A stretch of DNA of 64,000 nucleotides from Neisseria sp. (lineage in GTDB: Bacteria > Pseudomonadota > Gammaproteobacteria > Burkholderiales > Neisseriaceae). Shown here piece by piece: positions 4,538-61,705 of the stretch; the first letter of the stretch is position 1; every line of letters begins with the position of its first letter. Under the pieces are notes generated by a model that saw only the letters and a program-made list of their open reading frames with translations, did not search any database and was not told the DNA's origin. A program made the position numbers and the translations under genes. The DNA lies in assembly GCA_030538415.1 (NCBI GenBank), contig JAUNTY010000003.1, positions 20,030 to 84,029 on the forward strand, in the 5' to 3' direction.

Positions 4538-5497
4538 TTATTCGACTGCCTGGTCGGTCGGATTGGCGATGATTTCCTTCACCTGCGCCGACATCGGGAA
4601 GTCGAGGTTTACGTTTTTCGGCGGAATCGGGCTTTCAAACCATTTTTTATACAAGGCGTCGATTTCGGCGGTGTTTTTGAAGGTGGCATCCAGAGCGCCG
4701 TCAACCACGGTCTTGAATGCGCTGTCGCCTTTGCGCAGCATGCAGCCGTAGCGCTCAAACGACATCGGCTCGCCCACAATCACCCATTTGTCGGGCTCCG
4801 CCGTTTTGGCGCGCTCGCCCGCCAGCAAGATGTCGTCCATCATGAATGCCTGGGCGCGGCCGTTGAACAACATCAGCGCCGCTTCGCCGTGATCTTTGGC
4901 AGAGATGATGTTCATGCCGAGTTTTTCCTTGTCGTTATAGGCTTTGAGCAGGCGCTCGGAGGTGGTGCCCGCAGTGGTGACCACGGTTTTGCCTTTCAGA
5001 TCGGGAAAGCCTTGAATGCCGGAATCGTTCGCCGTCATCAGGCGGGTGCCGATTTCAAAAAAGGCATTGGAGAAATCCACCTGCTTCTGACGCTCGAGGT
5101 TGTTGGTGGTGGAGCCGCATTCGATGTCGACCGTGCCGTTGCTCACCAGCGGAATGCGGTTTTGCGAGGTGACGAGGTTGTAGCGCACCTTCAGGTCGGG
5201 CATATTCAGCTCTTGTTTCACCGCTTCCACCACTTTCAACTGCAAGTCGTGGGCATAGCCCACCGGCTGGTTGGGCTGGTCGGCTATGTAGGAAAACGGA
5301 ATCGAAGAATCGCGGTGCCCCAACACAATGGTGCCCGACGACTTGATTTTCTCCAGCGTGCCCTGCCCGCTTACAGCGGCAGGCGCTTCACCGGAAGCGG
5401 CGCTGCCGGCGGGTTTCGACGATTCCCCGCCGCAAGCGGCGAGCCCCAGCGCCACCATGCAGGCGAGGCCGAACGGTTTTAATGCGTTTCGTTTCAT
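4538..5497 (-). CDS. Amino acid ABC transporter periplasmic substrate-binding lipoprotein (GltI-like)
   Basis: 319 aa with a signal peptide and lipobox (LAAC), the solute-binding protein family 3 fold, and a GGGAG Shine-Dalgarno sequence. Confidence 0.85.
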   Translation of the reverse strand: MKRNALKPFGLACMVALGLAACGGESSKPAGSAASGEAPAAVSGQGTLEKIKSSGTIVLGHRDSSIPFSYIADQPNQPVGYAHDLQLKVVEAVKQELNMPDLKVRYNLVTSQNRIPLVSNGTVDIECGSTTNNLERQKQVDFSNAFFEIGTRLMTANDSGIQGFPDLKGKTVVTTAGTTSERLLKAYNDKEKLGMNIISAKDHGEAALMLFNGRAQAFMMDDILLAGERAKTAEPDKWVIVGEPMSFERYGCMLRKGDSAFKTVVDGALDATFKNTAEIDALYKKWFESPIPPKNVNLDFPMSAQVKEIIANPTDQAVE

Positions 5498-11274: not shown

Positions 11275-11406
11275 GATTCAAACCGTCAGGATGCTTTATT
11301 GATTTTCAAACAATTTCATTAGAGCAGTTCACCTAATCTTTGTTTTTGATTATGCTGCTTCAACCGCACATCACTCTCTCAAGCTGCGGATAACAAAGGA
11401 GAAATC

Positions 11407-11814
11407 ATGAAGAAATTAATCATCCTGGCCGCCCTCGCCAGCCCGCTCGCGTTCGCACAAGGCATCGAAGGCAAATGGCGCACCATCGACGACGAAACCG
11501 GCAAACCCAAGGCGGTGGTGCAAATCAGCCAGAGCGGCGGCACTTACAGCGGCAAAATCGTCTCGCTGGCAGACGGCGTGAAAAACGAATGCCCGGCCTG
11601 CCAACCCGCCAAACCGCTCATCGGCCTGACCATATTGACCGGCCTGAAAGAAAAAGGTGGCAAATACGAGGGTGGCAAGATTTACGACCCGAAAAGCGGC
11701 AAAACCTACAATGCCAAGGCCGAAACAGCCAACGGCGGTCAGGCGCTGAAAGTGCGCGGTTATCTCGGCGTGTCGGCGCTGGGGCGCACCCAAACCTGGC
11801 AGAAAGCGGACTGA
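11407..11814 (+). CDS. DUF2147 family periplasmic protein, copy 1
   Basis: 135 aa with signal peptide MKKLIILAALASPLAFA and the conserved GKWRTIDDETGKPK...GKIYDP motif. Good AAGGAG Shine-Dalgarno sequence. Confidence 0.7.
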   Translation: MKKLIILAALASPLAFAQGIEGKWRTIDDETGKPKAVVQISQSGGTYSGKIVSLADGVKNECPACQPAKPLIGLTILTGLKEKGGKYEGGKIYDPKSGKTYNAKAETANGGQALKVRGYLGVSALGRTQTWQKAD

Positions 11815-12049
11815 GCTTCACCGGCAAATCAAAGGCCGTCTGAAAAGCCGGATGGGTTGCCGCATCTATCCAATTCAGCCAGGCTTTCAGACGGCCTTGA
11901 AGCCGCCGCAACATTGCCCCAAATAATCATTTGACTTTAAAATAAATTAAATTTCAGCCAAGCCATTCACTTCATCCGTGTTTTTCGTTATTCTTTGCCA
12001 ACAAGAAAAATAAATCCTTGTGTTAAAAGGAGAATACATAAATAAATTA

Positions 12050-12445
12050 ATGATACTGGTAGCGCTGTTCAGCCCACTGGCCTTCGCGCAAGGTATCGAA
12101 GGCAAATGGCGCACCTTCAGCGACCTCACCGGTAAGCCCGAGGCGGTACTGCAAATCAGCCAAAACGGCGGTGTGTACAGCGGCAAAATCGTCTCGCTGG
12201 CAGACGGTGTGAAAAACGAATGCCGCGCCTGCCAACCCGCCAAACCGCTCATCGGCCTGACCGTGCTGTCCGGCTTGAAAGAAAAAGGCGGCCGATACGA
12301 AGGCGGTAAAATCTACGACCCGGCAAACGGCGCAACCTACAACGTCAAAGCCGAGCTGGCCAATGGCGGCAGCGCTTTGAAAGTGCGCGGTTATTTGGGG
12401 GCTTCCACCTTGTGGCTCATCCAAACCTGGCAGAAAGCAGATTAA
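12050..12445 (+). CDS. DUF2147 family periplasmic protein, copy 2 (tandem paralog)
   Basis: About 75% identical to copy 1 (GIEGKWRTFSDLTGKPEAVLQISQNGGVYSGKIVSLADGVKNEC...). The ATG at about 12050 is preferred over the upstream GTG used by the ORF track. Confidence 0.65.
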   Translation: MILVALFSPLAFAQGIEGKWRTFSDLTGKPEAVLQISQNGGVYSGKIVSLADGVKNECRACQPAKPLIGLTVLSGLKEKGGRYEGGKIYDPANGATYNVKAELANGGSALKVRGYLGASTLWLIQTWQKAD

Positions 12446-12449
12446 GTTT

Positions 12450-12521
12450 TATAGTCGAAGAAATTAGTTTCTGCTACGGCGTTGGCTCGCCTTGTATCAG
12501 AATCTAATTTCTCCGACTATA
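12450..12521. repeat. Family A Correia-like element, short form (~72 bp)
   Basis: TATAGTCGAAGAAATTAGTTTCTGCTACGGCGTTGGCTCGCCTTGTATCAGAATCTAATTTCTCCGACTATA. It lacks the central segment present in the long form. Confidence 0.75.
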
Positions 12522-12577: not shown

Positions 12578-14091
12578 TTATTTAAACAGCAAAATCAACA
12601 CCAACGCCACCGCAATCACCGCCAGCCACAAACTTTGCCGCTGCTGGATTTTCACCAGATGAATGTAGGCATCGCGCATTTCCTGCTGGCGCGTTTCATC
12701 CACCAGCATATTCAGCTTGCGCGGCAGGCTCGGCAGGATTTGCGCCCAATCGGGCGCTTCTTCTTTCAAATTGCGCAACAGGGCTTTGGGGCCGACCTGC
12801 TCGTTCATCCAACTGACTAAAAACGGCTTCGCCGTTGCCCACAAATCCAAATCGGGATCGAGTTGTCTGCCCAAGCCCTCGATGTTGAGCAGGGTTTTTT
12901 GCAGCAACACCAGCTGCGGCTGGATTTCTACATTGAAACGGCGGCTGGTTTCAAACAGGCGCATCAGCACCAGGCCGAACGAAATCTGCGACAAGGGCTT
13001 GTTGAAAATCGGCTCGCACACCGCGCGCACGGCGGCTTCCAGCTCTTCGGCACGGGTGTCGGCGGGCACCCAGCCCGATTCGATGTGAGCGGTGGCGACG
13101 CGGTGGTAATCGCGGTTGAAAAAGGCGAGAAAATTAATCGCCAGATAGCGTTTGTCGTATTCGGTGAGGCTGCCGACAATGCCGAAATCGAGCGCGATGT
13201 AGCGGTTGTCGGCGGCGACGAGGATATTGCCGGGGTGCATATCGGCATGGAAAAAGCCGTTTTTAAACACTTGGGTGAAGAAAATTTCCACGCCGTAACG
13301 GGCGAGCTTTTTCAAATCAATACCGTCTGAACGCAATTTTTCCACATCCGAAATCGGCGTGCCGTCCATCCATTCGATGGTGAGCACGTCGCGACTGCAA
13401 TAATCGAAATATACCTGCGGCACAATCAGCATATTGCTGTCGGTAAAGTTGCGGCGCAGTTGGCTGGCGTTGGCCGCTTCTTTCATCAAATCCAATTCGT
13501 CGTGCAGGTATTTGTCGAATTCTGCCACCACCTCCTGCGGTTTCAGGCGCTTGCCGTCGGCAAACAGCCGCTCTATCCATTTGGCACCGAAACGCATCAG
13601 CGCCAAATCCTGCTCGATGACCGGCAGCAAATCGGGGCGCAACACCTTTACTGCCACCGCTTCGCCGCTGTGTAAACGCGCCTTGTGCACCTGCGCCACC
13701 GAAGCGCTGGCCACCGGCACTTCGTCAAATTCGGCATACACTTTACCAATCGGATGCCCGAGCGAAGCCTCAATGTGCATGCGTGCAACCGTGCCGGGAA
13801 ACGGCGGCACTTTATCTTGCAGCTTCGCCAGCTCCCGCGCATATTCCGGCGGCAGAATATCGGGGCGGGTGGAGAGTACCTGCCCCAGCTTCACAAAAAT
13901 CGGCCCCAGGCTCTCCAGCGCCAAGCGCAGGCGCACCGGCAGCGGCTCCTCGTGGCTCTGCGGGCTTTGCGGCAGCTTCTGCAGCAACAGACGCAGCCAT
14001 TCGGGGCGCACATGCCCGGCAAAAATGTCGGCGAGGCCGTAGCGGTAAATCGTTTTAATGATGGTGGTGGAGCGTTTCAGCCATTTCATGA
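12578..14091 (-). CDS. ubiB: Ubiquinone biosynthesis regulatory protein kinase UbiB (ABC1/ADCK family)
   Basis: Atypical kinase motifs, a C-terminal transmembrane segment and about 500 aa. The start is set at [10 protein letters not shown]; the longer track ORF reads through the adjacent MITE. Confidence 0.88.
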
Positions 14092-14827: not shown

Positions 14828-15667
14828 ATGACCGAAAGCCAAAAAAAACTCAGTTTTGAATTTTTCCCCACGCGTACGCCGGAAGGGCGTGCCAAACAGG
14901 TGATTACACGGAAACAACTGAGCCAGTACAACCCCGAATTCTTCTCCTGCACCTCCGGCGCCGGCGGCTCCACCAAAGAAGGCACCATGCAGGCGATTGA
15001 AGATATTTTGAGCGAAGGCGTGGCCGCCGCGCCGCACCTGCCCTGCGTTGGCATGCAGCCCGAAGAAATCATCGGGCTCTTGCAGGAATACAAAGCAATG
15101 GGCGTGCGCCACCTGGTGGCATTGCGTGGCGACATCCCTTCCGGCGTCGGCGCAGGCATGGCCGGTTTGCGCTATGCCAACGAGCTGGTGGCGTTGGTGA
15201 AAAGCGAATTCGGCAGCGATTTCCACGTGGAAGTAGCCGCCTACCCCGAATACCACCCGCAGGCGCGCAGCGCCGAAGACGACATCAACAATTTCGTGCG
15301 CAAGGCCAAAGCAGGCGCAGATTCGGCGATTACACAATATTTTTACAATCCCGACGCCTACTTCCGCTTTGTCGACGATGTGCAGGGGCGCGGTGTGGAT
15401 ATTCCGATTATTCCCGGCATCATGCCGATTGCCAGCTTTTCCAAACTGGCGCGCTTTTCCGACACCTGCGGCGCCGAAATCCCGCGCTGGCTGCGGCTGA
15501 AACTGCAATCGTATGCCGACGACACCGCCGCCATCAAGGCGCTGGCGCTGGATGTGGTCACCGAAATGTGCGAACGCCTGCTGCGCGAAGGCGCGCCCAG
15601 CCTGCATTTTTACACGCTGAACCAGGCCGGTCTGGTTTCCACCGTCTGCCAGCGCTTGGGCTATTGA
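14828..15667 (+). CDS. metF: 5,10-methylenetetrahydrofolate reductase
   Basis: 279 aa aligning to E. coli MetF along its full length (SFEFFPTRT, AAPHLPC, HLVALRGD, ITQYFY, HFYTLNQAG). Confidence 0.9.
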   Translation: MTESQKKLSFEFFPTRTPEGRAKQVITRKQLSQYNPEFFSCTSGAGGSTKEGTMQAIEDILSEGVAAAPHLPCVGMQPEEIIGLLQEYKAMGVRHLVALRGDIPSGVGAGMAGLRYANELVALVKSEFGSDFHVEVAAYPEYHPQARSAEDDINNFVRKAKAGADSAITQYFYNPDAYFRFVDDVQGRGVDIPIIPGIMPIASFSKLARFSDTCGAEIPRWLRLKLQSYADDTAAIKALALDVVTEMCERLLREGAPSLHFYTLNQAGLVSTVCQRLGY

Positions 15668-15908: not shown

Positions 15909-15980
15909 TATAGTCGAAGAAATGAGTTTTTACTACGGCGTTGGCTCGCCTTGTATCAGAATCTCATTTCTCCGACTATA
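15909..15980. repeat. Family A Correia-like element, short form
   Basis: TATAGTCGAAGAAATGAGTTTTTACTACGGCGTTGGCTCGCCTTGTATCAGAATCTCATTTCTCCGACTATA. Confidence 0.75.
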
Positions 15981-20173: not shown

Positions 20174-20281
20174 TATAGTCGAAGAAATGAGATTCTGATA
20201 CAAGGCGGCGAGCCGCAGACAGTACAGATAGTACGACAAGGCGAGCCAACGCCGTAGCAGAAGCTCATTTATTCGACTATA
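20174..20281. repeat. Family A Correia-like element, long form
   Basis: TATAGTCGAAGAAATGAGATTCTGATACAAGGCGGCGAGCCGCAGACAGTACAGATAGTACGACAAGGCGAGCCAACGCCGTAGCAGAAGCTCATTTATTCGACTATA. Confidence 0.8.
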
Positions 20282-24379: not shown

Positions 24380-24872
24380 TTATTCGGGCAGGCCTTCCAC
24401 AATGTAAGTGCGCGAATTGCCGGCGCGGTGGCGGATGGGGATGATTTTGCGGTATTCGGGCGAGTTGTACCAGGCTTGCGCTTGGGCGAGGCTGTCGAAC
24501 TTGATCATCACCAGCCGCCCCTGCGCGCCGAAGCCTTCTTTCACGTCGGCTTCGCCGCCGCGCACGATGTATAGTCGGAGAAATTAAGTTTTAATACAAG
24601 GCGGCGAGCCGCAGACAGTACAGGCAGTACGACAAGGCGAGCCAACGCCGTAGTAAAGCTTAATTTCTCCGACTATAGCGGCCGCTATACGGGCGGAAGG
24701 TATCTTCCACTTCGGCGCTGTAAGGGCGGATGGCCTCGCGGTCGGTGGCTTCGAATTCGGCCACATAATAAGCGGGGCTTGCCTTGGCTGCACCGGCGGG
24801 CGCGGCATGGGCGGCCAGCGGCAGGGCGGCTGCGGCCACTGCGGCGAAGGCAGACAAAAACAGTTTGGTCAT
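24380..24872 (-). pseudogene. DUF1330 family secreted protein gene disrupted by insertion of a 108-bp family A MITE
   Basis: The N-terminal piece (24660..24872: MTKLFLSAFAAVAAAALPLAAHA...PAYYVAEFEATDREAIRPYSGRY) and the C-terminal piece (24380..24565: ...RLVMIKFDSLAQAQAWYNSPEYRKI...) are in different frames and are separated by the element at 24570..24677. Deleting the element and keeping one TA restores a continuous DUF1330 ORF (…GRYIVRGGEADV…). Confidence 0.75.
24570..24677. repeat. Family A Correia-like element, long form, inserted at a TA inside the DUF1330 gene
   Basis: TATAGTCGGAGAAATTAAGTTTTAATACAAGGCGGCGAGCCGCAGACAGTACAGGCAGTACGACAAGGCGAGCCAACGCCGTAGTAAAGCTTAATTTCTCCGACTATA. Confidence 0.85.
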
Positions 24873-29017: not shown

Positions 29018-29089
29018 TATAGTTGGAGAAATGAATTTCTGATACAAGGCGAGCCAACGCCATAGCAGAAACTCATTTCTCCGACTATA
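29018..29089. repeat. Family A element, short form
   Basis: TATAGTTGGAGAAATGAATTTCTGATACAAGGCGAGCCAACGCCATAGCAGAAACTCATTTCTCCGACTATA. Confidence 0.7.
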
Positions 29090-31114: not shown

Positions 31115-31222
31115 TATAGTCGAAGAAATTAGATTCTGATACAAGGCGGCGAGCCGCAGGCAGTACAGATAGTACGACAAGGCGAGCCAACGCCGTAGCA
31201 GAATCTAATTTCTTCGACTATA
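31115..31222. repeat. Family A Correia-like element, long form
   Basis: TATAGTCGAAGAAATTAGATTC...GAATCTAATTTCTTCGACTATA, followed by the hairpin repeat GCGTGGACTCTGCCCGCG. Confidence 0.8.
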
Positions 31223-31487
31223 GCGTGGACTCTGCCCGCGAAATGCTAAAGGCCGTCTGAAACCGAGACATTACAGTTTCACCAACAACGTGGGCAAAGC
31301 CCACGCTACTGGCTGCAGATTGCGACAGGATTAAAATTACCAACGGGCGCGGATTTTTCTTCAATGGCCATACATTTTACGGCTGCGTAGCGTGGGCTCT
31401 GCCCGCGAAATGCTAAAGGCCGTCTGAAATCATGGCATTACCGTTTGGCCGACTGGTTTTCAGACGGCCTTTAGTTCAACAATGACT

Positions 31488-31892
31488 GAGACCTTTGCAA
31501 AATTCTTCTGCCCGTCGCGCCCGCGCAGGCGGGTGCCTAGTGCAAAGCGCGGCTTTGCTTGCCTGCCCATTTCGATTATTCCAAAAACCCAAGTTGAATC
31601 ATTGAGTTGTATAGTCGTTTCAATTTAGACTGAAACAAGGCAGCAAGCCGCAGGCAGTACAGATAGTACGACAAGGTGCAGCAACGCCGTAGCAGATATT
31701 AAGTTTAGCCACTATAGTACGGCTAGGCGAAGCAACGCTGTATCAAACTAACGGAACGACTATATTATTCCAAAAACCGAATTTGAATCATTGGGTTGTA
31801 TATTTTCAAACCTGGCAGGTTTGAGCTGAAGCTGCGCTTCAGACTGGGCACCCGCCTGCGCGGGTGCGACGGTTATTTTTTACAAAGGTCTC
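31488..31892. repeat. Composite repeat: a family B MITE carrying a nested family A-type element
   Basis: Family B ends GAGACCTTTGCAAAAT...GTCGCGCCCGCGCAGGCGGGTGCC at the left and ...CTGGGCACCCGCCTGCGCGGGTGCGACGGTTATTTTTTACAAAGGTCTC at the right. Inside, a TATAGTCGTTTCAATTTAG-type element (31610..31764) is flanked by a 37-bp direct duplication. Confidence 0.7.
31610..31764. repeat. Family A-type element, inverted-repeat variant 3 (TATAGTCGTTTC...), plus an adjoining half element
   Basis: Complete copy at 31610..31716 (…AGTTTAGCCACTATA), followed by a right-half copy ending AAACTAACGGAACGACTATA. Confidence 0.65.
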
Positions 31893-31897
31893 GGCCT

Positions 31898-32536
31898 TTA
31901 GTTCAACAATGGCTGATTATCGGCTTGTTCTGTTTCAATCTCTACTTCTGCTTCCGTTTCTGTGACCTCTTCTTCATCACCCGTCGGTGGCGTGTCCATC
32001 AATTCGGGCAACACCAACTCGCCAAGCTCGGTCAAAGGCGGCAGTTCGGTCAAATCGCCCAACTGCAAATCGGTGAGAAAGCCTTCCGTGGTCGCCCACA
32101 AAGCCGGGCGGCCGACGGTGTCGCGGTGGCCGATGACTTCAATCCAGCCGCGGTCTTGCAGGGTCTGCATCACATTGCTGGAAACCGCCACGCCGCGTAT
32201 GCCTTCGATGTCGCCGCGCGTCACCGGCTGCTGATAGGCGATAATCGCCAGCGTTTCCATCACCGCGCGGGAATAGCGCGGCGCACGCTGCTCCTGCAAA
32301 CTGCCGAGGCGCTCGAATGCGCGGGCGTCGATTTGGAAACGCCAGCCTTCGTGGGTGTGCACCAATTGCAGCGCACGGTTATGCCAACGGGCTTTCAGGG
32401 TCGAAAGCACGTCGATCAGCTTGTCGGCAGACAAGGGCGGCACGCACAGTTCGCGCATCGCCCGTTCGCTCAGAGGCTCGATTTGGGTCATCAATGCGGC
32501 TTCAATCAGCGCATCGGGAGCAAGTTTGTCGTTCAT
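31898..32536 (-). CDS. scpB: Segregation and condensation protein B
   Basis: 212 aa with tandem winged-helix ScpB domains (TRGDIEGIRGV...) and an acidic C-terminal tail. Confidence 0.88.
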   Translation of the reverse strand: MNDKLAPDALIEAALMTQIEPLSERAMRELCVPPLSADKLIDVLSTLKARWHNRALQLVHTHEGWRFQIDARAFERLGSLQEQRAPRYSRAVMETLAIIAYQQPVTRGDIEGIRGVAVSSNVMQTLQDRGWIEVIGHRDTVGRPALWATTEGFLTDLQLGDLTELPPLTELGELVLPELMDTPPTGDEEEVTETEAEVEIETEQADNQPLLN

Positions 32537-34327: not shown

Positions 34328-34384
34328 TATAGTCGAAGAAATGAGTTTCTGCTACGGCGTTGGCTTGCCTTGTCGTACTATAGC
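34328..34384. repeat. Truncated family A element (left half only)
   Basis: TATAGTCGAAGAAATGAGTTTCTGCTACGGCGTTGGCTTGCCTTGTCGTACTATA, ending at the internal GTACTAT. Confidence 0.55.
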
Positions 34385-39402: not shown

Positions 39403-39500
39403 TATAGTCGGAGAAATAAGATTCTGATACAAGGCGGCGAGCCGCAGACAGTACAGATGGCGAGCCAACGCCGTAGCAGAATCTTATTTCTTCGACTATA
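39403..39500. repeat. Family A element, intermediate form (~98 bp, internal deletion)
   Basis: TATAGTCGGAGAAATAAGATTCTGATACAAGGCGGCGAGCCGCAGACAGTACAGATGGCGAGCCAACGCCGTAGCAGAATCTTATTTCTTCGACTATA. Confidence 0.75.
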
Positions 39501-40381: not shown

Positions 40382-40459
40382 TATAGTCGTTTCAATTTAG
40401 ATTGAGACAAGGCAGCAAGGCGCAGTAACGCTGTATCAAACTAAATTGGAACGGCTATA
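40382..40459. repeat. Family A-type element, inverted-repeat variant 3, short form
   Basis: TATAGTCGTTTCAATTTAGATTGAGACAAGGCAGCAAGGCGCAGTAACGCTGTATCAAACTAAATTGGAACGGCTATA. Confidence 0.65.
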
Positions 40460-42053: not shown

Positions 42054-42161
42054 TATAGTCGGAGAAATTAGATTCTGATACAAGGCGGCGAGCCGCAGAC
42101 AGTACAGATAGTACGACAAGGCGAGCCAACGCCGTAGCAGAAACTCATTTCTTCGACTACA
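42054..42161. repeat. Family A Correia-like element, long form
   Basis: TATAGTCGGAGAAATTAGATTCTGATACAAGGCGGCGAGCCGCAGACAGTACAGATAGTACGACAAGGCGAGCCAACGCCGTAGCAGAAACTCATTTCTTCGACTACA. Confidence 0.8.
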
Positions 42162-51558: not shown

Positions 51559-51768
51559 TATAGTCAGGAAAATTAATTTTTATAGTCGTTTCGTTAGCTT
51601 GAGACAAGGCAGCAAGCCGCAGACAGTACAGATAGTACGGCAAGGCGCAGCAACGCTGTATCAAGCTAAATTGAAACGACTATAATACAAGGCGGCGAGC
51701 CGCAGACAGTACACGCAGTACGGCTAGGCGAGCCAACGCAGTAGCAAAAGTTAAGTTTCCTGACTATA
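51559..51768. repeat. Nested MITEs: a family A-type element (variant TATAGTCAGGAAA inverted repeats) interrupted by a variant-3 element
   Basis: The outer element runs TATAGTCAGGAAAATTAATTTT, then the inner TATAGTCGTTTCGTTAGCTTGAG...TTGAAACGACTATA (51581..51684), then AATACAAGGCGGCGAGCCGCAGACAGTACACGCAGTACGGCTAGGCGAGCCAACGCAGTAGCAAAAGTTAAGTTTCCTGACTATA. Confidence 0.7.
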
Positions 51769-52986: not shown

Positions 52987-53079
52987 TTTCCGGCATCAAA
53001 ATATGAAACAGGCCGTCTGAAAGCAGTAGCGCTTTCAGACGGCCTTTAAATGGCTGTTCCGCCGCGCCCCCTACCGCCG

Positions 53080-53187
53080 TATAGTCGGAGAAATTAGATT
53101 CTGATACAAGGCGGCGAGCCGCAGACAGTACAGATAGTACGACAAGGCGAGCCAACGCCGTAGCAGAAACTCATTTCTTCGACTATA
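53080..53187. repeat. Family A Correia-like element, long form
   Basis: TATAGTCGGAGAAATTAGATTC...GAAACTCATTTCTTCGACTATA, followed by the hairpin repeat GCGTGGGCTTTGCCCACG. Confidence 0.8.
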
Positions 53188-53220
53188 GCGTGGGCTTTGC
53201 CCACGAAAACCACACAAGCT

Positions 53221-53300: not shown

Positions 53301-53494
53301 AGCCGTAGCGTGGGCTCTGCCCACGAAAACCACACAAACTGCACGCAAAGACAACATTTCCGAAATTGTGGTTAACGGTTCCGCCCAAAACGTGGCAGAA
53401 CCCACGCTACGCCGTCTGATTGGTTCAACATCAAAATATGAAAAGGCCGTCTGAAAACCCCATGCTTTCAGACGGCCTCTGTTTTCAACCAACA

Positions 53495-60711: not shown

Positions 60712-60761
60712 AGATATCCGTTCTTTTCAAGAAAGCCACAGCCATGTCGAAGCCTTTAATA

Positions 60762-60869
60762 TATAGTGAAAAAACTTAATATCTGCTACGGCGTTGCTGC
60801 ACCTTGCCGTACTATCTGTACTGTCTGCGGTTTGCTGCCTTGTATCAAATATTAAGTTTTTCCACTATA
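60762..60869. repeat. Family A-type element, inverted-repeat variant 4 (TATAGTGAAAAAACTTAATAT...)
   Basis: TATAGTGAAAAAACTTAATATCTGCTACGGCGTTGCTGCACCTTGCCGTACTATCTGTACTGTCTGCGGTTTGCTGCCTTGTATCAAATATTAAGTTTTTCCACTATA. Confidence 0.75.
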
Positions 60870-60972
60870 GTCAATTAAAATGAAAACAATTCAAGGCGGC
60901 GGGCGGAAGACAGCAAACTCTGTGCGGCAAAACGAGGAAACGCTGGGGTGTTTCTTATTTTAATTGACTATA
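60866..60972. repeat. Family A-type element, inverted-repeat variant 5 (TATAGTCAATTAAAATG...), sharing its terminal TA with the preceding element
   Basis: TATAGTCAATTAAAATGAAAACAATTCAAGGCGGCGGGCGGAAGACAGCAAACTCTGTGCGGCAAAACGAGG...TTTCTTATTTTAATTGACTATA. Confidence 0.6.
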
Positions 60973-61047
60973 AACAATCGCTTTTTATTATCTATGCTAT
61001 CAAACAAAATAAAAAGGCCGTCTGAAAAATATTTTTCAGACGGCCTG

Positions 61048-61436: not shown

Positions 61437-61466
61437 TTAACACTATAAAAGGCCGTCTGAAAAATA

Positions 61467-61674
61467 TATAGTCGTTCCGTTAGATTGATACAAGGCAGCA
61501 AGCCGCAGACAGTACAGATATAGTGAAAAAACTTAATATCTGCTACGGCGTTGCTGCACCTTGCCGTACTATCTGTATTGTCTGCGGTTTGCTGTCTTGT
61601 ATCAAATATTAAGTTTTTCCACTACAGTACGGCAAGGCGCAGCAACGCTGTATCAAACTAACGGAACGACTATA
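61467..61674. repeat. Nested MITEs: a variant-3 family A element with a variant-4 element inserted at its central TA
   Basis: The outer element runs TATAGTCGTTCCGTTAGATTGATACAAGGCAGCAAGCCGCAGACAGTACAGA, then the inner copy TATAGTGAAAAAACTTAATAT...TTTTTCCACTACA (61519..61626), then GTACGGCAAGGCGCAGCAACGCTGTATCAAACTAACGGAACGACTATA. Confidence 0.75.
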
Positions 61675-61705
61675 TTTCAGACGGCCTTTTGTATCGGAAA
61701 AACCC

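Follow-up and report, generated by a model that had tools for sequence, protein, structure and literature searches.

Correia-type elements nested at TA sites in a 64-kb stretch of Neisseria sp. DNA

At positions 61467-61674 of the 64-kb stretch of Neisseria sp. DNA analysed here (the window), a short inverted-repeat element lies inside another one, and the locus raises the question of how such an element came to be there and whether its position reflects more than the crowding of these elements. An earlier note, made from the letters of the sequence, had described MITEs inserted into other MITEs at three places and had read them as three independent events of recent mobilisation in trans by a shared transposase. 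In the present study each of these claims is followed through the window, its relatives and metagenome contigs. Our best explanation, to which as a whole we assign a probability of about 0.8, is that the MITEs of the window are real, that they became nested at TA by transposition, and that crowding explains the nesting.

Elements of the window and their nesting

By the pairing of their termini, about 23 Correia-type MITEs of 72-108 bp were identified in the window, covering 2.3 kb (3.6%) of it, and the core pattern GCCGCAGACAGTACAGATAGTACGGC has 14 matches against 0 expected, far above chance. This one conserved core is combined with at least seven types of terminal repeat, named V1 to V7 (V3 with the subvariants V3a and V3b), and the arms of each element pair with each other, type by type. 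All elements start with TATAG(T); among the 22 with flanks compared, 20 are bordered by TA on both sides and two by TA and CA, TA being the target throughout. An alignment of all seven sequences, with a mean column identity of 80%, shows V1 to V5 collinear with the classical Correia element, and likewise V7, which has diverged further. The same core is present at loci of N. mucosa, N. sicca, N. elongata and N. gonorrhoeae, with other terminal repeats. None of the elements holds an open reading frame and no transposase domain was found within the 64-kb window, in agreement with the mobilisation in trans that had been proposed.

Example copies are those at 31115, 15672, 51581, 60762, 28884, 51559 and 60866. 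V1, V4 and V6 make up one group of terminal repeats, and V3, V7 and the classical Correia repeat a second one. The arms stay complementary while the terminal repeats get replaced. Besides the full-length copies there are short forms with internal deletions of the core, which parallel the 69-73-bp class of CREE, and a half element:

12450-12521, short form of 72 bp
15909-15980, short form of 72 bp
29018-29089, short form of 72 bp
40382-40459, short form of 78 bp
39403-39500, short form of 98 bp
34328-34381, half element ending exactly at the central TA (...CGTACTATA/GCAATC; slashes mark junctions here and below)

The partner half of the last one was searched for within the window and was not found. 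The first of the short forms lies just downstream of a tandem pair of DUF2147 genes (11395-11694 and 12026-12325), a DNA repeat of 300 bp with 83% identity. Two copies of V1 adjoin the same REP-like hairpin, TAGCGTGGGCTyTGCCCrCG, at 31222-31245 and 53187-53210, with similar left flanks (..GCCGCCATG and ..TACCGCCG); either a TA in the hairpin repeat is a recurrent target, or element and hairpin belong to a larger joint repeat unit. AG-type DNA uptake sequences (DUS; aggccgtctgaa) are spread throughout the window, and the closest named organism to its proteins is Uruburuella testudinis (FabG 97%, DapC 90%).

Three of the nested structures have junctions that can be read directly, and their parts are as follows:

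61444-61696, minus strand, inverted DUS pair (terminator-like hairpin after fabG) with nest 1 in its loop
61467-61520, left half of the outer V3b of nest 1, from the TA duplicated at its own insertion (61467-68) to the TA at its centre that served as target (61519-20)
61519-61626, inner V4 of nest 1, 108 bp with the flanking TA and CA, body 61521-61624
61627-61674, right half of the outer V3b of nest 1, beginning GTACGG
51559-51768, outer V6 of nest 2 (TATAGTCAGGAAA type), 108 bp without its insert
51581-51684, inner V3 of nest 2, 104 bp, flanked by TA on both sides
60760-60972, V7 element (TATAGTCAATTAAAAT terminal repeat, beginning TATAGTCAATTAAAATGAAAAC...) with V4 (60762-60869) in its first, terminal TA

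The layout of nest 1 is TATAGTCGTTCCG...CAGA/TA/(TAGTGAAAAAAC...TTTTTCCACTA)/CA/GTACGG...CGGAACGACTATA, where the round brackets enclose the insert, which ends ...CCACTA, and where the right-hand copy of the target duplication is CA instead of TA. The position of V4 at the central TA of V3, as first described, is confirmed to the base. Deletion of 61521-61626 leaves an outer element of 102 bp that can be aligned over its whole length with the intact V3 at 51581-51684, and the inner V4 is identical in 105 of 108 positions to the V4 copy at 60762-60869, the two copies being 757 bp apart. The core of the inner V4 is antiparallel to the core of the outer V3b, and in the predicted fold the target TA is found within the five-base loop of a small central GTAC/GTAC hairpin. 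The outer V3b occupies in turn the TA within the loop formed by the inverted DUS pair located 3' of fabG. For the fabG (minus) strand of the region 61440-61700, a single hairpin of great length (-126.5 kcal/mol, z = -14) is predicted that takes in the DUS pair, V3 and the antiparallel V4, and which directly after fabG would be a potential RNase III substrate.

The empty form of this terminator would read GGCCGTCTGAAATATATTTTTCAGACGGCC. In ten contigs of a related lineage (L082-L091, FabG 98% identical) the hairpin of the DUS pair is unbroken, with the sequence GGCCGTCTGAAAATATATTTTTCAGACGGCC, and no element is present there. The fabG-kefC spacer measures 333 bp in these contigs versus 995 bp in the window, where it is rearranged, the terminator being duplicated with a family-B block between the copies, and the family-B elements of the orthologous regions differ; U. 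testudinis is similar to the relatives. What the relatives hold is a matching terminator with an empty target, and not a clean empty allele.

In nest 2 the insertion point, TTTT/TA/ATACAAGG, is located at the end of the outer terminal-repeat stem, between repeat and core, and once V3 is taken out, the remaining 108 bp form an element that runs collinear to the copy at 24570-24677. The placing of a V3 inside this type of element was therefore correct, and the deletion of the inner copy plus one TA, proposed by the earlier note as a check, yields full-length outer elements, of 102 bp in nest 1 and 108 bp in nest 2. A relative, L093, has a DapC 95% identical to that of the window and a DNA identity of 77-90% over collinear blocks. 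The same NMO-dapC spacer of this contig (9770-9960) contains a different short element (TATAGCGAAATAAAATAAGAAAGA...) hosting a V3 in the opposite orientation and at a neighbouring TA (GA/TA/CAAGG), a nest independent of those in the window and belonging to a different lineage. L093 is without the V1 copies found in the window at 42054 and 53080 and carries V3 copies of its own; one of them (13169-13274) splits a PAP2-like ORF (W-S-R-I/Y-L-G-V) at ATT/TA/CCTG with duplication of the TA, and this is direct evidence of TA-duplicating insertion.

Only three nests had been listed, and while nests 1 and 2 were rightly among them, a fourth case, V4 in V7, had been overlooked. Its junctions read CTTTAA/TA/TA(TAGTG..CCACTA)TA/GTCAATT. 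The preference for TA that had been proposed is thus borne out by MITE-in-MITE insertion at TA with duplication in nest 1, nest 2 and V4/V7, as well as by the flanks described above.

The comparison of orthologous loci, the other check put forward at the outset, gave a mixed answer, since the terminator is intact at the nest 1 position in L082-L091 within a spacer that is rearranged in the window, and L093 holds a different nest in the spacer of nest 2. Among at least 80 Neisseriaceae loci matched by KdsB, the best match listed is 86% (N. perflava); synteny around the nests is not kept in these loci and no empty sites were found. The mobilisation had also been called recent. Mobility since the split from the relatives is supported by the empty fabG terminator and by the differences from L093; recency can be stated only in relative terms, the closest pair of copies being 97% identical and the lineages compared differing by about 10-23% in DNA.

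Two other origins of such composites have to be weighed against transposition. The nests could be artefacts of metagenome assembly, with reads of separate repeat copies merged by the assembler. The window belongs to a MAG contig, its repeats are 90-97% identical, and a short-read Logan contig matched by FabG (L001, 3 kb) stops 27 nt inside the right arm of V3b, at 100% identity. Nevertheless, mis-joins fall in shared k-mers, that is in the core, and would yield neither TA-flanked terminal repeats nor an outer element of canonical length, and the same architecture appears in many independent assemblies (L222, L142, L139, L163, L204 and L093); we consider this origin very improbable. The composites could alternatively have arisen by homologous recombination or gene conversion between elements sharing the core, or could belong to longer families that spread as units. 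Nest 3, a chimera with mismatched outer ends, is clearly recombinant, and published work, cited in PMC10969869, reports in-place inversion of CREE. At five different metagenome loci (L147, L165, L172, L194 and L211) an outer left half is found together with an inner element and with no outer right half, and because such forms recur at different loci, composites can spread as units. In nests 1, 2 and V4/V7, however, the junctions fall exactly at the element termini, with duplicated TA and outside the shared core, both partners are also known as free-standing full-length copies, and recombination in the core is unable to put a complete terminal repeat within another element. For the nests of the window as a whole we regard recombination as improbable, with somewhat better prospects than an artefact of assembly.

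Transposition remains the preferred reading. We propose that the elements were moved by a DDE transposase supplied in trans, most likely one of the TA-duplicating IS630/Tc1-mariner type, and that new copies would persist only in intergenic DNA; some insertions would then hit older elements because earlier copies already take up a third of the intergenic TA sites. In nest 1, V3 entered the TA in the loop of the terminator that the DUS pair forms after fabG, followed later by V4 entering the loop TA of the central GTAC-AGATA-GTAC of V3. Nest 2 formed by entry of V3 into V6 at the end of the terminal-repeat stem, and the fourth case by entry of V4 into the first TA of V7.

Nest 3 and its family-B host

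The third structure differs from the others in that it lies within an element of another family, and it is composed of the following parts:

31488-31892, family-B element, NIME/dRS3-like, about 225 bp when intact, host of nest 3
31575-31613, left copy of a 39-bp direct repeat of family-B sequence, its final TATA overlapping the start of the element
31610-31716, chimeric unit, the left end and core of V3a joined to the right end of V4
31717-31764, right half of V3b, starting at the central TA/GTACGG
31764-31802, right copy of the 39-bp direct repeat

This nest had been described as a variant-3 element plus a half element with a 37-bp flanking repeat. The V3 right half and the flanking repeat stand, whereas the variant-3 element is a V3/V4 chimera and the repeat measures 39 bp. 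The first 44 nt of the chimera match V3a in 41 positions, and its last 51 nt match V4 in 47 versus 36 for V3. The V3b right half agrees with its counterpart in nest 1 at 46 of 48 positions, shares with it the private subvariant CTAACGGAACGAC, and has the same central start; the V4 end is oriented opposite to that of nest 1. The two copies of the 39-bp repeat are identical in 36 positions, and three intact family-B copies carry this segment once. Deletion of the inner copy and one TA restores no element here; removal of the nest 3 composite together with one copy of the 39-bp repeat gives a collinear family-B element.

Judging from the sequence, nest 3 is probably a rearranged V4-in-V3 nest. 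The independence of the three events could not be maintained, since nests 1 and 3 share the CTAACGGAACGAC subvariant, the inner family and the target TA and nest 3 is rearranged; both may descend from a single V4-in-V3 event and are not necessarily independent. The starting point would be a V4-in-V3b nest with the inner element in the orientation opposite to that of nest 1. In such an orientation the core on the outer left side and that of the inner element would form direct repeats of about 31 bp; homologous recombination of the inner core with a V3a element would lead to the observed order, with loss of the outer left core and of one V4 end and with another V3 left end brought in. An unequal exchange between two family-B alleles or copies with elements 39 bp apart would then account for the flanking repeat; we propose it because of the mismatches between the repeat copies and because two V3 subvariants are represented at the outer ends, and such an exchange appears plausible in a naturally transformable organism. 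The history would comprise several steps, of which no intermediate has been observed.

Two simpler accounts of nest 3 were considered and rejected. One is a target duplication of 37-39 bp made by a transposase: all other copies duplicate TA, and the repeat copies differ at three positions. The other is that nest 1 was simply copied, against which stand the reversed orientation of the inner element and an outer left end of another subvariant.

The family-B host, in the scpB-rluB spacer, has on either side 19 bp of the 3' end of scpB as a direct repeat (31466-84 and 31893-911). A complete family-B element at this locus is absent in the relatives, which show a truncated B or none. Long direct duplications bracket family-B elements or blocks at 31466-31484 / 31893-31911, 53007-53047 / 53437-53477 and 61000-61040 / 61444-61696; the first is the scpB segment and the others are whole DUS-pair terminators, with a single terminator in the relatives. 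This suggests for family B a mode of entry different from TA transposition.

Frequency of nesting, landing sites and candidate partners

A total of 229 of the 1844 TA dinucleotides of the window lie inside elements (12%), and the share rises to 32% for TAs outside ORFs. The probability of finding at least four of 23 elements nested is 0.32 on the former basis and 0.97 on the latter. The frequency of nesting is at chance level, as expected in a genome crowded with repeats. An automated search for nests by the pairing of terminal repeats gave only 3 of them and was not used as a census.

A landing preference could still exist, the central TA of Correia-type elements or TAs in hairpin loops being the favoured sites; the cause could be a local palindrome or bend, or a centre, GATAGTAC, that mimics the element end TATAGT. 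Nests 1 and 3 share the same central TA, and the hairpin loops of DUS pairs hold the outer V3 of nest 1 as well as the V1 copy at 20174. All three V4 copies of the window are inside other elements (p = 0.002-0.03), although this test is post hoc and the copies are perhaps not independent. Against these points, overall nesting is at the chance level just given, other TAs are used by nest 2, the L093 nest and V4/V7, and nests 1 and 3 perhaps stem from one event, two matches on the same TA among about nine having p ~0.1.

Metagenomes were scanned for the left junction GACAGTACARATA/TAGT, a pattern of 17 nt (120 loci; about 100 chance matches were removed by context). True Correia elements with an insert at the central TA account for 22 of the 120 loci, with at least four MITE types and two IS630-family insertion sequences (ISs) among the inserts. 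The MITEs found there are Correia-like, 89-148 bp long, and form complete nests with TA duplication in L222, L139, L142, L204, L148, L205 and L118; in L220 a classical Correia element is nested in a classical Correia element. The search required that exact junction, so it demonstrates recurrence and gives no relative rate or preference, and many of the matches are one composite at different loci, which suggests a composite spreading as a unit. Taking these points together, targeting is a possibility that we hold to be somewhat doubtful, and crowding is preferred as the explanation of nesting. On one contig (L141, minus strand, match at 4728-4744) a classical Correia centre reads AAATA-TA-GTACGG, with an extra TA and no insert, and this TA may be the excision footprint of a nested element.

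The two IS630-family ISs, of 920 bp in L163 and 887 bp in L208, are located at the central TA with the TA duplicated and have TATAGT ends. That of L163 (3768-4792) is a complete nest, and its left end is also found at the junction on the ends of short contigs in L138 and L162. The IS fragments match the domains HTH_Tnp_IS630 and DDE_3 / NF033545. The IS with matching ends was found only in other Neisseria contigs, where it is frameshifted. A remnant of an L163-type IS is seen at a N. gonorrhoeae locus (L023, ~14923-15013).

Over 28 nt without gaps, the ends of the L163 IS are identical to V7 in 23 positions, to the classical Correia element in 22 and to V3a in 19, its own two ends agreeing in 20; V1, V4 and V6 match them in 11-14, which is background. 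In the same comparison with the classical Correia repeat V3a has 21, V7 20 and V1, V4 and V6 13-17 identities over a background of ~12-13, and the repeats of V1, V4 and V6 agree with those of V3, V7 and the classical element in 11-17 of 28 positions, a background level beyond TATAG(T). The proposal that all families share a transposase is accordingly not upheld: V1, V4 and V6 are at background level against V3, V7 and the classical repeat, making at least two classes of terminal repeat. A shared landing site says nothing about a shared enzyme, since in other Neisseria the central TA has also received two different IS630-family ISs whose ends are of other types.

By the similarity of its ends, the L163-type IS is a candidate autonomous partner of Correia-type elements. 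A broader scheme, in which the central TA is a preferred landing pad of the IS630 family, the TATAGTCAATTAAAA-ended IS (L163, L138 and L162) a possible mobiliser of the classical, V3 and V7 lineages, and the composites new mobile units, seems to us rather unlikely. If it were true, composites would use one outer and one inner end, which would lead to longer mobile units and drive the turnover of terminal repeats seen here.

Comparison with known systems

Correia elements affect promoters, terminators and RNA processing in Neisseria. The nesting in the window leaves that picture unchanged and can be regarded as a by-product of very high element density; its consequences include very long hairpins and the breaking of short-read assemblies. 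Two aspects go further. The lineage keeps the core and swaps the terminal repeats, so the conserved features (termini, core and TA target) become separable from the variable ones. Furthermore, IS630-family ISs with Correia-like ends within Correia centres make the question of the partner transposase directly testable.

The elements of the window share with Correia elements (CREE, nemis) the duplication of TA with occasional CA ends, the TATAG(T) termini, the core ACAAGGCG..GCCGCAGACAGTACA(G/A)ATAGTACGGCAAGGCG..CAACGCCGTA, and a mostly intergenic location, often beside DUS terminators. Their forms of 72, 78, 98 and 102-108 bp may correspond to the size classes near 70 and 105 bp. They differ in that the canonical 26-bp repeat (TATAGTGGATTAA(C)A...; TATAGTGGATTAACAAAAA.. 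or ..AAATTTAAA..) is replaced in the window by at least seven other repeats, and the 155-bp long form of Correia was not found in the window. The density of elements is about three times that of N. meningitidis, a figure based on about 250 Correia copies per 2.2 Mb in the latter.

TA duplication and occasional CA ends are also reported for the CREE of the gonococcus (Snyder 2009, PMC2649163). The Correia literature and MITE reviews describe TA duplication, CA ends and a mobilising enzyme that is unknown, and in the part of them covered here no mention of nested Correia elements was found.

Family B resembles NIME / dRS3 in being intergenic, about 225 bp long, with inverted CACCCGCGCAGGCGGGTG-type motifs near both ends and GAGACCTTTGCAAAA termini. 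Its motif departs from the dRS3 consensus, ATTCCCN8GGGAAT, and its copies are bracketed by duplications of 19 to ~40 bp. On these sequence features family B is likely a relative of NIME / dRS3.

Nesting at TA is familiar outside Neisseria. Nested plant MITEs (Stowaway/Tourist) have been used to read insertion preference; copies duplicating TA or TAA are found inside older ones, and removal of the inner copy restores the outer one, as in nests 1 and 2, although the plant elements are eukaryotic and reach far higher copy numbers. For TA-duplicating bacterial MITEs an affinity with IS630 is suspected. The closest parallel to a partnership of this kind is RUP of Streptococcus pneumoniae, a MITE of 107 bp with TA duplication and IS630-Spn1-like ends that is mobilised in trans (PMC2229807), and the pneumococcal BOX, RUP and SPRITE repeats lie in clusters and are found inserted within each other (PMC3049150, PMC10969869). 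The RUP/IS630-Spn1 system differs in its host and sequences, and the window is without a partner IS. Nesting itself is thus an ordinary phenomenon of a known kind, and the diversity of terminal repeats together with the Correia-ended IS630-family IS are the useful leads that this locus provides.
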